IMG/VR virus record: IMGVR_UViG_3300032222_000250
Source of the DNA: an uncultured virus (IMG/VR IMGVR_UViG_3300032222_000250)
Lineage: Duplodnaviria > Heunggongvirae > Uroviricota > Caudoviricetes
Direction: 5' to 3' (one strand)
DNA: 20,000 nucleotides
In this document: piece by piece, positions 10,870 through 20,000 of the stretch
Numbering within the stretch: the stretch's first letter is position 1
How the letters are laid out: every line of letters starts with the position of its first letter
The notes under the pieces: model-generated
The model's database searches: none
What the model was told of the DNA's origin: nothing
What the model saw: the letters and a program-made list of their open reading frames with translations, nothing else
Program-made: the position numbers and the translations under genes

Positions 10870-11341
10870 AAGAATTATCCTTGTTGGAAAGGCAGCTTCA
10901 GGTAAAGACCACCTGAGAAAGAAGTATGAGTCACGTGGATTCAAATACGCTGTGAGTTATACCACAAGACCACCAAGAGAAGGTGAAGTTGATGGTAAAG
11001 ATTATTTCTTCTTAACAGATGAAGAAGCAACCAAAATGGTTGAATCAAATATGTTTTATGAATATGTTTATTTCAATGGTTGGTTGTATGGCACAACAGT
11101 AGAACAGTTTTATAGTGATGACTTATTCATTATGACACCTGCAGGTATTTCACACGTTAAACCTGAAGATAGAGTTAATTCATTTATTATATATACGGAT
11201 ATTGATATTGAAACAAGAGAGATTAGATTAAAAATGAGGTACATGCCTGGTGATAGTTTGGAACGAAGAATTCAGGCTGATGAGGTGGACTTTACAGGTT
11301 TTAATGATTATGATTTAAGAATAACAAACGCAGATTTTTAA
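10853..11341 (+). CDS. gmk: Guanylate kinase-like nucleotide kinase
   Basis: P-loop GKAASGKD, 'VSYTTRPPREGEVDGKDYFF' and 'YFNGWLYGT' guanylate kinase signatures. Start at 10844, 10853 or 10856. Confidence 0.88.
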   Translation: MMRNHKRIILVGKAASGKDHLRKKYESRGFKYAVSYTTRPPREGEVDGKDYFFLTDEEATKMVESNMFYEYVYFNGWLYGTTVEQFYSDDLFIMTPAGISHVKPEDRVNSFIIYTDIDIETREIRLKMRYMPGDSLERRIQADEVDFTGFNDYDLRITNADF

Positions 11342-12213
11342 TGGAAAATTTTATAGGAAAAGTAGTAAACGGTGATTGTCGTGAAGTGATGAAAACTATG
11401 GAAGAGGGTTGTGTTGACCTGATTGTAACCAGTCCTCCATATGGAGTTGGAATTGCTTATGATGTTCACGATGATGATATGTTGATTGAAGAGTATTTGA
11501 AGTTCACTGAAGAGTGGATGACCGAAGCGTTCAGAGTGTTGAAAGATGATGGTCGTATCGCAATTAACATTCCATATGAAATCAACCGTCAAGCAAAAGG
11601 TGGTCGTGTATTCATGGTGAGTGAAGTGTGGCAAATCATGAAAAAGATTGGTTATAAGTTCTTTGGGGTTGTTGACCTTGAAGAAGAATCACCACACAGG
11701 AGCAGAACAACCGCATGGGGTTCTTGGATGTCTCCATCAGCACCATACATCTATAACCCAAAAGAGTGTGTTATATTGGCTTACAAGAAGAAACACATTA
11801 AAATTGTCAAGGGAGTTCCTGAATGGGTTGGTGAAATGGGTGAGGTTGAAGATAAGAACGGTGTGATGAAGAACAAAATGATGTATACCGAAACCCAAAA
11901 ACGTGAGTTTATTGATTTGGTGTTTGGTCAATGGCATTACTTTGCCGATACAAAAAGTATGACCAAAGCAACATTTTCAATGGACATACCAACCAAAGCA
12001 ATTAAGATTCTTACCTATAAGAATGATGTTGTTTTGGACCCGTTTGCTGGTAGTGGAACTAGTTTAGTTGCAGCTGAAACTTTGGACCGTAGATGGATTG
12101 GTATTGAACTCAGTCCCAATTATGCTGAGGTTGCCAAGAAACGAGTCAACGTATTTGTTGAAGGTAGACGACAACAAGTAATAAATTTTGAAGAAACTAC
12201 AACCCTCACTTAA
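11341..12213 (+). CDS. Orphan DNA methyltransferase, N4-C/N6-A family, beta class
   Basis: LIVTSPPY (motif IV) N-terminal and VLDPFAGSGT (motif I) C-terminal. SPPY suggests m4C. Confidence 0.92.
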   Translation: MENFIGKVVNGDCREVMKTMEEGCVDLIVTSPPYGVGIAYDVHDDDMLIEEYLKFTEEWMTEAFRVLKDDGRIAINIPYEINRQAKGGRVFMVSEVWQIMKKIGYKFFGVVDLEEESPHRSRTTAWGSWMSPSAPYIYNPKECVILAYKKKHIKIVKGVPEWVGEMGEVEDKNGVMKNKMMYTETQKREFIDLVFGQWHYFADTKSMTKATFSMDIPTKAIKILTYKNDVVLDPFAGSGTSLVAAETLDRRWIGIELSPNYAEVAKKRVNVFVEGRRQQVINFEETTTLT

Positions 12214-16100: not shown

Positions 16101-16508
16101 ATGAAGAAATCAGCCGGAGTAATTGTTAAATGGGACAATAAATGTCTTTTATGTAAAAGGAGTAATGTTGAAACTTATTCAGGGGAATGGAGTATTCCTG
16201 GTGGTAAGGTAGAACCTGATGAGGACATTATAGATGCTGCTCATCGTGAGTTCTATGAAGAAACAGATAAGAAACTAACGGGGGATTTGGAATTCCTTGG
16301 GGTTATGGGTAGAATGAACCGTAAGGGAACCAAACAATCATCTATAATGTATGTGTTTACAACTAATGTGGATGAACCAATACATCCTGACTTGGAAAAT
16401 GCTGAGTACGGGGAAGAACATTCAGAGTGTGGATACTTTTCAATTGATGATTTGCCTGAACCAATCGGTGAAAATTTAATGGAATATTTAAAAAATGTTC
16501 TAAAATGA
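16101..16508 (+). CDS. NUDIX hydrolase
   Basis: Nudix box GGKVEPDEDIIDAAHREFYEET. Confidence 0.92.
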   Translation: MKKSAGVIVKWDNKCLLCKRSNVETYSGEWSIPGGKVEPDEDIIDAAHREFYEETDKKLTGDLEFLGVMGRMNRKGTKQSSIMYVFTTNVDEPIHPDLENAEYGEEHSECGYFSIDDLPEPIGENLMEYLKNVLK

Positions 16509-16598
16509 TTTGACAACTGAAAAAAAGTTGTTATGTTTTTATAACTTTGGTAAATAGGAATATATTTATTACTTACCAAATAAAAAAAACAAAGTTTA

Positions 16599-16630
16599 TT
16601 TGACAGTTTGAAAAAATAGTCTTAACTTTG
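16599..16630 (+). promoter_or_regulatory. Bacteroidetes-type promoter (TTTG-N20-TAACTTTG) for the large ncRNA
   Basis: TTTG 16599-16602, TAACTTTG 16623-16630, A-tract upstream; no ORF downstream. Confidence 0.8.
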
Positions 16631-16638
16631 TGAAACAA

Positions 16639-16670
16639 TTGAGAATAACATCTCAAAACGTTCTTTGAAA
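16639..16670 (+). promoter_or_regulatory. boxB-like hairpin plus boxA-like antitermination element
   Basis: TTGAGA-ATAACA-TCTCAA hairpin (16639-16656), then GTTCTTTGAAA (16660-16670), matching the boxA seen in bacterial rRNA leaders. Confidence 0.6.
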
Positions 16671-16671
16671 C

Positions 16672-17460
16672 GCCAACTTCACCCCCTTAAATGAAGTTTG
16701 GTTTGTATCTTCGGCGGTTTAGCGTCGATTAAGATAACCCCGGTAACGGGACTATAGGGAGGAAAAGTTTCAACGGCTTAATACTTCGGTGTCACGAAAG
16801 TGGCTCACAACTAAACAAATTACCTACAGATAAATTCTCATGGGCGACAGCTGAGAGAAAGTATCTATTCTGACTACGTGAGTGTCAGGGTTGAGATGGA
16901 GACATCAATAGGAATAGGTAAAGGTGATGGTTCGACTCAGACGCCAATCTGATGTAGGGCTAGGTACCAGTTTATCATAGGTGTCCAAAGAGCAATCTAA
17001 CGACATCAAGATAAATCGTAGTCTTGGCGGATTACAGAAGGTTGAGTGGTATTTCCTTCTTCAAAAGAGAAGCTAGCCACCTCAGAGCTCAACCTTCATA
17101 GACTCACAATGTTGAATTCTCGTTGATAGAAGAATCAAGATAAAAAGGAGAAGTCTCTGAGCGATTGAACTGAAAGTCACCTAATTCCTTGGGTAGAAAT
17201 ACCAACGAGGAAATTGACAGGACCCCAAGTCCTTCAGTTTTGACTAAGAAAGTCCTAGTACCTGGGCACGGGTTTAGAGAGTCCGCAAGATTCTATAGAG
17301 GCAAGTAGTAGTTGAGTAGGTTTAATCGAAACGTGTGATTGTCGTAAACAATCGGTGATGACTTGATACTTGTGGCAACACGAGTGGACACGAGAGGAAA
17401 CCTTGGTCGGTATAATCTCTACAAAAGACAGGTCAACGAAACATGTAGTCTCAATGTTTT
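16672..17460 (+). ncRNA. Large structured non-coding RNA (~800 nt), GOLLD-like candidate
   Basis: No ORF of 60 aa or more on either strand; GC visibly above the flanks; many GNRA/UUCG-capped hairpins on the + strand; long-range 10-bp helix 17037-17046/17088-17097; bounded by a promoter and a terminator. The family assignment rests on size, context and recalled motifs only. Confidence 0.8.
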
Positions 17461-17494
17461 AGCCAACCTCACATAGGATAGTATCCTATGTCCG

Positions 17495-17529
17495 ACCCCG
17501 AATGAGAAATTGTTCGGGGTTTCTTGTTT
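17495..17529 (+). terminator. Rho-independent terminator of the ncRNA transcript
   Basis: ACCCCGAATGA-GAAA-TTGTTCGGGGT then TTCTTGTTT; preceded by the palindrome ACATAGGATA-G-TATCCTATGT (17471-17491). Confidence 0.8.
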
Positions 17530-17554
17530 ATATGGATTTTTATTACTATATTTG
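17523..17554 (+). promoter_or_regulatory. Bacteroidetes-type promoter (CTTG-N20-TATATTTG)
   Basis: TATATTTG 17547-17554, ATG 4 nt later. Confidence 0.68.
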
Positions 17555-17558
17555 ACTT

Positions 17559-18128
17559 ATGAAAGAACAAGATGTGGTAATCGATTATAAACAAATTGCT
17601 GAAAATCGAGCAAAAAATAAAAACCAAGTCGAAGATGGTTTATGTTTTGATAATTTTTTGGCAGCATGTTATGTTAAATGTTCATCACAATCTTATGGTC
17701 CAAAAATTGAAAAACGGATTATTGATGAATATGGGTTTGAAAAAATACCATCTAAAAAAGGTGAAGGAGATTTGTTATCGTCAAAAATAACTTCATTTCC
17801 GGGTTTTAATTTTGGAGAAGGAAAAAAAACAGAATTAAAAGTTTCGTATTTGTCATCAAACAAATCGTGGAATTTAATTCAAATTAGACCATATGAAAAT
17901 TTTGATTTTTATGTTTTTTTACTTATAAATCCTTATGATGGTTGTAAATTTGAATGGTTCATTCTTAAAAAAGAAGACGTAAACCATAATAATTTTAAGA
18001 TGAATTCAATTCACGGAACAAAAAAGAGTAATTTAGAAAATAAAAACATTGAGTATAAAATAAATGCTACAATTGGTAGTGATAATTATAATAAACTAAA
18101 AGAACTTAATTTAATTAAAAATGTATAA
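17559..18128 (+). CDS. Putative type II restriction endonuclease (PD-(D/E)XK fold)
   Basis: 'GPKIEKRI...GEGDLL...TELKVS...QIRP' fits an E...D...ExK nuclease pattern; overlaps an MTase by 8 bp. Confidence 0.6.
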   Translation: MKEQDVVIDYKQIAENRAKNKNQVEDGLCFDNFLAACYVKCSSQSYGPKIEKRIIDEYGFEKIPSKKGEGDLLSSKITSFPGFNFGEGKKTELKVSYLSSNKSWNLIQIRPYENFDFYVFLLINPYDGCKFEWFILKKEDVNHNNFKMNSIHGTKKSNLENKNIEYKINATIGSDNYNKLKELNLIKNV

Positions 18129-18903
18129 CGTATTAAATGTAAATTTTTTTGACGAAATAAAAAATGTTGAAAGTGACTCTATAGATTTAATTTTGACCGA
18201 CCCACCATATGGTATATCGCACAGTGATGGTTTTATAAAACAGTCTAAAAATAGTAAAGCAAAGACCCACACAATTATTGGGGATAATCCAAATGATTTA
18301 GATTGGGACATTATTTTATCAGAATTTTATAGAGTGTTAAAACCAAATAAAATGTGTTATATTTTTGGAAGAACTGATATGTTTATAAGAATTGGTCAAA
18401 ACATAATCAATTCAAAACTTAAATATTGTCATGATTTTATTTGGAGAAAGGGTGATATGAATTATGGTAACTTAGGTATTATGGGTAATATACATGAAAT
18501 GTGTATAGGTCTTGCTAAAGGTAATCCTGAAAAATCCAGACCTTTATTGATAAATGGTGAAGAAAAAAAAAGATATAAAGCAGAATATTCTGGTAAAGTT
18601 TCAAGTAAAGAGTATTATGGACATCCTACCCAAAAACCAATCGGACTATTAAGTTATATAATATTGGGTAGAACTGATGTTGGTGATTTAATATTTGACC
18701 CATTTGTTGGTGCTGGGTCTACAAATATTGCTTGTGAGATAACAGGACGAAATTCATTATCATTTGAATTAGACCAAACATTTTATGATTTGACATTGAA
18801 ACGAATAAATGATGAGGAACACATGAAGATGTGTAGAAAACAAATTGAAGGTGGTTTGGTATATTCTGAGTGTGGTTTATTATCGTTTAATAAATTTGTG
18901 TAA
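18121..18903 (+). CDS. DNA methyltransferase, N6-A/N4-C family, beta class
   Basis: LILTDPPY, HPTQKP and IFDPFVGAGS motifs. Confidence 0.92.
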   Translation: MYNVLNVNFFDEIKNVESDSIDLILTDPPYGISHSDGFIKQSKNSKAKTHTIIGDNPNDLDWDIILSEFYRVLKPNKMCYIFGRTDMFIRIGQNIINSKLKYCHDFIWRKGDMNYGNLGIMGNIHEMCIGLAKGNPEKSRPLLINGEEKKRYKAEYSGKVSSKEYYGHPTQKPIGLLSYIILGRTDVGDLIFDPFVGAGSTNIACEITGRNSLSFELDQTFYDLTLKRINDEEHMKMCRKQIEGGLVYSECGLLSFNKFV

Positions 18904-19492: not shown

Positions 19493-20000
19493 ATGAAATT
19501 CCCAATGGCCATATTAGATGACTACACAAAAAGGGGTTTGTTGTTCAAACAGACACACCGTAGTTTGCCATTATCCATATGGAACTATACACCGAACGTT
19601 CAGTACGGTGACTTGTGGGACGATGTTACATTGTCATGTCGTGGATTGGTTACAGATAACAGAGGTAATGTAATTGCCCGACCATTCAAAAAGTTCTTCA
19701 ACATAGAGGAGAACAAACACGTACCAACATCTGACTTTGAGGTCTTTGAAAAGATGGACGGTTCTTTGGGAATCATGTTCAAGTACAATGGTGAGATGAT
19801 ATGTGCCACTCGTGGTTCATTTACTTCAGACCAATCAAAGTGGATGACCGACTTTGCTATGAAGTACAACTACCAAGACATCATTGTTGAAGGGTACACT
19901 TATTTGTTTGAGATAATCTATCCTGAGAATAGAATCGTGGTTGATTACAACGGTGAGGAGCGTTTGGTATTACTTGGTATAATCAACACTGAGACTGGTG
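19493..20000 (+). CDS. T4 Rnl1-like RNA ligase (3' truncated); not in the ORF track
   Basis: Manual translation MKFPMAILDD...IWNYT...CRGLV...IARPFKKFFN...FEKMDGSLG...ATRGSF...YLFEIIYPENRIVVDY. KxDGS is nucleotidyltransferase motif I. Confidence 0.9.
   Translation, partial: MKFPMAILDDYTKRGLLFKQTHRSLPLSIWNYTPNVQYGDLWDDVTLSCRGLVTDNRGNVIARPFKKFFNIEENKHVPTSDFEVFEKMDGSLGIMFKYNGEMICATRGSFTSDQSKWMTDFAMKYNYQDIIVEGYTYLFEIIYPENRIVVDYNGEERLVLLGIINTETG

Follow-up and report, generated by a model that had tools for sequence, protein, structure and literature searches.

The locus described here raises the question of whether a phage can have a long untranslated RNA made by placing a leader of the host's ribosomal RNA (rrn) type in front of the gene. 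The window, by which we mean the whole 20-kb stretch of DNA from an uncultured freshwater phage that was analyzed, contains a gap of about 1 kb without a long open reading frame (ORF), and this gap contains a leader and an RNA gene. The earlier note on this DNA had read positions 16599-16670 as an rRNA operon-style leader on a phage noncoding RNA, and that reading is supported by the identity of its boxA word with host words, by the order of promoter, hairpin, and boxA, and by conservation. Antitermination through boxA and the Nus factors is textbook knowledge, and so is its use by lambdoid phages. Our analysis supports the conclusion that 16599-16670 probably serves a GOLLD gene of this phage as its promoter and 5' leader and that it is built like the rrn leader of a presumed Bacteroidota host. 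We presume that the host belongs to the Bacteroidota, the promoter type and the boxA variant being the only indications.

The GOLLD gene and its leader

The gap is bordered by a NUDIX hydrolase gene (16101-16508) on one side and by a gene with no assigned function (17559-18128) on the other. The surroundings are phage-like and include two N6/N4 DNA methyltransferases, a guanylate kinase, an SLT lysozyme domain, and a T4-type RNA ligase. Within the gap, the plus strand at 17037-17457 matched Rfam family RF02032 over the full model (1-416 of 416), with 298.1 bits and an E value of 8.7e-85 against a gathering score of 150. This match identifies the RNA behind the leader as a member of the known family GOLLD, so that the phage noncoding RNA of the earlier note is not a new one. 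GOLLD RNAs are among the largest RNAs of bacteria and phages, and they build RNA-only cages.

The Rfam match covers the 3' domain of GOLLD. The 5' region, the variable half outside the Rfam model, occupies 16699-17036 on the plus strand, the segment that separates the leader from the Rfam match, and an Rfam search of it at E values up to 1 returned insignificant matches only (STnc150, E 0.21; Ocean-VII, E 0.07). The interval from the leader to the 3' domain is approximately 340-400 nt. A terminator scan found an intrinsic terminator on the plus strand at 17494-17531, with a 12-pair stem (17494-17521) followed by a T-rich tail, which was called strong and is also present in the fold of the whole transcript. 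We place the GOLLD transcription unit at about 16635 to about 17531. Published GOLLD RNAs are described as up to ~800 nt long, the 3' half being conserved and the 5' half less so, and env-38 GOLLD is laid out as 1-420 and 421-833 (PMC12286853); the unit in the window fits this published 5'/3' layout. Among cultured phages, blastn found no match to 16500-17560 and megablast found no match to the whole window.

Several other features of the neighborhood were observed. The two N6/N4 DNA methyltransferase genes (11341-12213 and 18121-18903) are paralogous and bracket the GOLLD region, the T4-type RNA ligase 1 gene (19493-19999) starts 2 kb downstream of GOLLD, and the 20-kb window has no tRNA genes. 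Inside the GOLLD 3' domain, at 17219-17233, there is a terminator-like hairpin with a U-run, the sort of chance stop signal to which a polymerase, once modified, would have to be indifferent.

Upstream of the RNA, the plus strand at 16599-16630 exactly fits the Bacteroidota sigmaA pattern TTTG-N20-TAACTTTG. The -33 element (16599-16605) is TTTG at 16599-16602, also readable as TTGACA at 16600-16605, and the -7 box is TAACTTTG at 16623-16630, recognized by its match to the consensus TAnnTTTG and conserved in related loci. TAnnTTTG at -12 to -5 is the mapped sigmaA consensus reported for Flavobacterium psychrophilum (PMC9723704), and from this placement, that is, from the position of the -7 box alone, we predict that transcription starts on the plus strand at about A16635. 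The sigma-70 reading of the same sequence is mediocre, with TAACTT as the -10 element, and a sigma-70 scan did not list TTGACA at 16600-16605. The consensus host-type promoter claimed previously is thus present as an exact Bacteroidota -33/-7 fit but is not a sigma-70 consensus. When we searched the window with the pattern TTTG-N18-21-TANNTTTG, there were 3 matches against 1.16 expected, and 3 or more matches occurred in 26 of 200 shuffles, a result that is not significant alone.

The 6-bp hairpin that had been described lies on the plus strand at 16639-16656, with a stem of TTGAGA/TCTCAA (16639-16644/16651-16656) and a loop of ATAACA, and the MFE and centroid folds agree on it. It starts about 5 nt past the predicted transcription start and is "boxB-like" by position; the small leader fold has a z score of -2.25. 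The word GTTCTTTGAAA is likewise present, at 16660-16670 on the plus strand, as the sole exact copy in the 20 kb. It would lie 26-36 nt past the start predicted from the -7 box, and when the whole transcript is folded, the centroid structure leaves it single-stranded. The word fits 10 of the 11 positions of the boxA consensus GYTCTTTAANA, which is a gamma-proteobacterial one (PMC5725501). Allowing up to one mismatch, GTTCTTTGAAA has 5 matches in the window against 1.64 expected. The statistics of the window alone are not compelling, and the case therefore has to rest on comparison.

Past boxA, and still ahead of the RNA body, the fold contains a second hairpin on the plus strand at 16675-16698 (AACTTCA/TGAAGTT with a 10-nt loop). 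Its stem is retained in L123, a locus closely related to the window that comes from a contig of 232,874 bp; there the loop has one additional T. Nothing recognizable as boxC follows boxA in the window. In a search for a leader-trailer helix, the best duplex, between 16635-16720 and 17426-17500, had an energy of -13.3 kcal/mol, and shuffled sequences paired more strongly on average (-20.6).

A second promoter at GAAGTTTG (16693-16700) or TTGGTTTG (16697-16704) was considered and rejected as the main promoter; these candidates are without the TA of the -7 consensus. On the other side of the leader, the segment after the NUDIX stop codon (16509-16549) contains TTGACA (16510-16515), a weak hairpin (CAACT/AGTTG), a T-rich run, and a second TAACTTTG at 16542-16549 that is without a correctly spaced -33 TTG. 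This segment could be the terminator of the NUDIX gene together with an upstream second promoter that resembles rrn P1.

Conservation of the leader in related viruses

Three patterns that lie inside the 3' domain served to pick GOLLD loci out of viral contigs, and nhmmer profiles were used to confirm GOLLD. Because the patterns were taken from the 3' domain only, the selection was blind to the leader. In set 1, 12 of 119 loci were GOLLD, and 9 of the 12 had enough upstream DNA. All 9 carry GTTCTTTGAAA, GTTCTTTAAAA, or GTTCTTTGACT, placed 448-508 nt ahead of the 3' domain; the corresponding distance in the window is 377 nt. The 107 non-GOLLD loci of the same set, taken as background, gave 2 matches to GTTCTTTRAAA in 452,344 nt. 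Set 3 contained 66 GOLLD loci among 120, 41 of them with at least 750 nt of upstream sequence. In the region from -750 to -350, GTTCTTTRA was found in 38 and GTTCTT[AT]RR in all 41 of these loci, compared to 3 matches in 82,000 nt of control sequence (the antisense strand and downstream regions).

The third collection, set 2, showed where the motif is missing. A boxA-like word was present within 1 kb upstream in 4 of the 12 GOLLD loci with flanks and missing over the same distance in the other 8, and 7 of these 8 belong to one Streptococcus pneumoniae/mitis prophage lineage with 40% GC that is 98-99.8% identical, in the best full-length matches, to temperate phages of S. pneumoniae/mitis. Since these prophage GOLLDs have no boxA, GOLLD can be made without the leader, and the absences in set 2 indicate that the leader is a fixed trait of one GOLLD clade and not of GOLLD generally. 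Judged by its sequences, the leader-bearing clade is one of low GC with Bacteroidota-type promoters. The expected conservation upstream of homologous RNAs was therefore borne out at 9 of 9 and 41 of 41 loci but does not extend to the GOLLDs of Streptococcus prophages. These Streptococcus GOLLDs (L303, L314, L322, L342, L355, L356, and L372) adjoin terminase genes, and some have a tRNA gene upstream.

The hairpin is also conserved, as a structure more than as a sequence: its stem reads TCGGA/TCCGA, CAGGA/TCCTG, TCAGT/ACTGA, TGAGA/TCTCA, and other variants in relatives. In an alignment of 43 distinct leaders (A1), 95.3% of the cells were paired, and compensatory changes were found in 4 of the 5 pairs (22 cells). 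The covariation score was equaled by 0 of 500 shuffles, and every slid register collapsed. This covariation is good but not independent evidence, because the leader sequences are related. The comparative counts and the hairpin covariation confirm, at the level of sequence, that the leader is more than chance.

Related loci share the architecture seen in the window, with a -33 TTG, a -7 TAnnTTTG, TAAAACAA, a short hairpin, and boxA. A scan of viral contigs for this module with TTTGTRAAACAA-N8-38-GTTCTTTRAAA matched at least 122 viral loci and at least 124 modules. The number of independent events is smaller than these counts suggest, because many of the loci are closely related; there are 54 distinct leader sequences among the 124 modules listed. 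Nearly all of these 124 modules have a TTG or TTTG some 20 nt ahead of the -7 box. We then asked what lies behind the module. Among the matches listed, 66 modules had at least 1000 nt downstream, of which 59 stand before GOLLD, 6 before tRNA arrays, and 1 before sequence with no ARAGORN call, where Rfam gave a tRNA-like match. For 20 loci picked for differing downstream sequence, Rfam gave same-strand GOLLD in 12 and tRNA arrays in 6; of the 2 loci without an Rfam match, one was short and one was a chance match to the pattern. No protein-coding gene was found behind the modules examined among the matches listed.

A tmRNA gene also has this leader word. A 232,874-bp relative (G042) contains the exact 11-mer exactly twice, once in the GOLLD leader and once before a tmRNA (L409, 1488-1901; RF00023, 63.7 bits versus 47). 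The tmRNA begins 5 nt after the exact GTTCTTTGAAA, which itself comes directly after a TATATTTG -7 box. ARAGORN did not call the tmRNA on L409, although Rfam finds RF00023 there. In the material examined, the module precedes only noncoding RNA genes, namely, GOLLD, tRNA arrays, and tmRNA. Five tRNA-array leaders (L122, L128, L137, L165, and L190) keep boxA and are missing the hairpin, which shows that the two elements are separable, and in L024 a copy of boxA follows a tRNA inside the array.

Some relatives have more than one such unit. A second full promoter-hairpin-boxA module is found near GOLLD in L181 (where the two modules are 213 nt apart), L174, L207, and L079 (where the second module is 722 nt before the GOLLD 3' domain). 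This second module leads an unclassified RNA of ~200-260 nt just upstream of GOLLD, which begins like "...ATTGGTTA[CT]AGAAACAGTCTAGGTCCGTAGGGCTACTG" and belongs to no Rfam family at gathering thresholds. In the tRNA-array leaders L128, L165, and L201, a promoter-like unit of TTTG and a -7 box follows within about 30 nt after boxA, giving tandem promoter/boxA units.

The module pattern matched 29 loci in bacterial genomes, almost all of them by chance as judged from context; promoter-like context was found only at L258, a GOLLD locus, and at L266. The strict pattern misses host rrn leaders, and we therefore compared the rrn leaders directly.

Host rRNA operons and environmental transcripts

We sampled the Bacteroidota because the promoter type points to that phylum. 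There was a 16S match in 25 of 41 Bacteroidota genomes, and 27 full-length 16S loci with flanks, from 23 genomes, were scanned over the 400 nt before 16S and over the 16S-23S spacer (ITS). A boxA-like regular expression matched 13 of the 27 16S leaders, from 12 of the 23 genomes, and 23 of the 27 ITS regions, from 19 of the 23 genomes and with 25 matches in total. It had 0 matches on the antisense strand of the same leader and ITS regions. In 11 of the 23 genomes the 16S leader had no match, some of these leaders being incomplete. The exact phage 11-mer, GTTCTTTGAAA, is found in the 16S leaders of 5 of the 23 genomes. Other leader words of the hosts are GTTCTTTGATA, GTTCATTGAAA, and GTTCCTTGAAA, and the spacer words are GTTCTTTGACA or GTTCATTGACA. 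The alignment with Bacteroidota 16S leader and ITS boxA sequences that the earlier note had proposed as a check thus came out in favor of its reading, with the identical word in leaders and variants of it in the ITS.

The layout is shared as well as the word. In most boxA-bearing host leaders, a folded hairpin ends no more than about 10 nt upstream of boxA. TAnnTTTG lies 29-124 nt upstream of boxA in 8 of the 13 host leaders, and in three host genomes this distance is 29-50 nt, compared to 37 nt in the phage. From the shared word and the shared layout we infer that the phage cassette copies the host rrn leader. NusB and Rho domains were found in all five Bacteroidota genomes sampled for them.

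Four metatranscriptome runs, from four studies, have contigs that cover 16698-17437, which shows that the body of GOLLD RNA is present in RNA libraries. Six metatranscriptome runs from six studies of freshwater and riverine samples contained 40-48% of the sampled words of 16400-17700, and fourteen DNA runs, mostly from lake water, contained 63-94%; one of these DNA runs may be where the window came from. The RNA contigs have no coverage of the leader (16635-16697) or of the flanking genes (16400-16575 and 17500-17700). They start at 16698 (X18), 16708 (X16), and 16710 (X15), and the X16 contig has loose letters that are recognizable as an Illumina adapter. Because these are contigs, with no DNA run alongside and with scattered ends, the uncovered leader is a sign of neither processing nor a downstream start. 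A low-depth X15 contig over 16598-16638 was set aside as belonging to a relative; its continuation has another hairpin and contains the word GTTCCTTGACT.

Proposed mechanism, alternative readings, and known systems

We propose that host sigmaA RNA polymerase would initiate about 5 nt past the TAACTTTG -7 box and that the nascent RNA would form the short hairpin first and then expose the single-stranded boxA GUUCUUUGAAA. By analogy with rrn operons, host NusB-S10 would bind boxA and, acting with NusA, NusG, and accessory factors, would turn the polymerase into a fast, Rho-resistant elongation complex that aids RNA folding. So modified, it could pass through ~800 nt of untranslated, highly structured RNA, and related phages may apply the same leader cassette to other stable RNAs, the tRNA arrays and tmRNA. 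In Escherichia coli, boxA RNA is described as the site of NusB-NusE, in an rrn order of boxB, boxA, and boxC (PMC4807359, PMC10250234), and NusB-NusE with NusA, NusG, and SuhB is described as a Rho-resistant complex that assists rRNA folding (PMC4807359, PMC10250234, PMC6614801, PMC8632103). It is from this E. coli biology that we infer Nus-factor binding, antitermination, protection from Rho, and help with folding. On that analogy we consider it probable that, to obtain full-length, correctly folded GOLLD, the phage enlists the rrn antitermination and chaperone complex of its host and that its relatives do likewise for tRNAs and tmRNA.

The same elements could be read in other ways. A strong stable-RNA promoter might be followed by a 5' processing or stability signal, in which the hairpin would protect or mark the 5' end and the boxA word would be read by a maturation nuclease or by another host or phage protein instead of NusB-S10, with no antitermination involved. 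The hairpin begins only ~5 nt past the predicted start, where 5' stabilizers are typically found, and the five hairpin-less tRNA-array leaders that carry boxA (L122, L128, L137, L165, and L190) would also suit such a signal. We nevertheless think this unlikely: the word is the boxA kept in Bacteroidota 16S leaders and ITS, and its occurrence there on the sense strand only is the signature of an rrn antitermination element, while a processing or stability signal would not need to be a letter-perfect copy across GOLLD, tRNA, and tmRNA genes. It is less likely still that the 11-mer acts in the DNA, as an operator or downstream promoter element for a host or phage regulator shared with rrn promoters. 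At 26-36 nt past the predicted start, it would be in reach of promoter-proximal regulators, and it includes the palindromic inverted repeat TTCnnnGAA, but the host word recurs in the 16S-23S spacer, remote from promoters, and the L024 copy comes after a tRNA within an array. The strand specificity of the host word (25 sense matches versus 0 antisense) is also not what would be expected of a palindromic DNA site.

The structural role that the 11-mer might have in mature GOLLD, by pairing with or contacting the 5' domain, would account for its universal presence at a fixed distance in this GOLLD clade and for its position a few nucleotides before the first conserved 5'-domain sequence. We regard this as quite improbable, since the module also leads tRNA arrays and tmRNA, where there is no GOLLD, the GOLLDs of Streptococcus prophages are without the word, and the 11-mer is predicted to be unpaired. 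The motif was also not found in five supplementary files of the GOLLD cryo-EM paper, although this tells little about the env-38 locus because the constructs may start past the leader. Finally, promoter-, hairpin-, and boxA-like words might simply have come together in AT-rich intergenic DNA, and the window itself offers some room for that, with its 3 promoter matches against 1.16 expected and a fold z score of just -2.25. The 9 of 9 and 41 of 41 GOLLD loci, set against 2 matches in 452 kb and 3 in 82 kb, and the covarying hairpin refute chance, to which we assign a negligible probability.

If, as we favor, the leader is of the antitermination type, one of the closest known systems is the bacterial rrn leader and spacer signal. 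The two have in common the order of promoter, hairpin, and boxA, the Bacteroidota rrn-leader word GTTCTTTGAAA itself, and a long, untranslated, highly folded RNA behind boxA, and the reuse of the phage cassette before tRNA and tmRNA genes recalls the tRNAs carried in rrn operons. They differ in that the phage leader is phage encoded and drives GOLLD, with no boxC recognized and no leader-trailer helix found, and in that it has a single promoter, not a proven P1/P2 tandem. The rrn antitermination complex (NusB-S10, NusA, NusG, and SuhB) has been characterized in E. coli.

Like a lambdoid nut site, this leader would use a host boxA on a phage transcript to modify the host RNA polymerase. In the lambdoid nut site, boxA is followed by boxB, and phage N protein binds boxB and passes the terminators of protein-coding operons (PMC2724277). 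In the window the hairpin precedes boxA, so that the boxA-then-boxB order of a nut site is absent; the phage leader has the rrn order, and its target is a noncoding RNA. The leaders of suhB and other non-rRNA genes are similar in having boxA outside rRNA operons. Those leaders serve mRNA regulation in gamma-proteobacteria, and the account of them by Baniulyte et al. (2017) states that noncoding RNAs were left out of consideration (PMC5725501).

With published GOLLD the locus shares the full-length model match, the size, the phage context, and the variable 5' half. The accessible text of published GOLLD descriptions mentions tRNA neighborhoods but no promoter, leader, or antitermination signal. 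In the cryo-EM paper that describes env-38 GOLLD as a 14-mer RNA nanocage (PMC12286853), the accessible text contains neither "antitermination" nor "leader," and the only promoter it mentions is that of T7, on the templates for in vitro transcription. Among open-access papers, which do not include the original 2009 description of GOLLD, we found none that links GOLLD to boxA or to antitermination, and the open-access literature likewise yielded no report of boxA leaders on phage stable-RNA genes or of Bacteroidota boxA leaders.

A host rRNA-type leader suggests that GOLLD, tRNAs, and tmRNA are fed through the fast, Rho-resistant, and fold-assisting machinery of rRNA transcription, and it offers a concrete handle on the biogenesis of GOLLD. 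The use of boxA by a phage for a noncoding RNA would add to the lambda-type use on mRNA operons, and the cassette may represent a compact natural expression unit for long structured RNAs in Bacteroidota. A wider reading is that Bacteroidota phages run a "stable-RNA regulon," in which an rrn-derived cassette stands before every structural RNA, the host rRNA complex makes these RNAs, cotranscriptional folding and assembly of the GOLLD cage depend on it, and the leader is later trimmed as in pre-rRNA. We offer this reading tentatively and are inclined to doubt it as a whole; if true, it would take in GOLLD, tRNA arrays, tmRNA, and at least one unclassified RNA of ~200 nt. A by-product of the comparison is a first comparative picture of the Bacteroidota rrn boxA: the 16S leaders have the form GTTCTTTGA[AT]A or GTTCATTGA[AT]A, and the spacer form is GTTC[TA]TTGACA.
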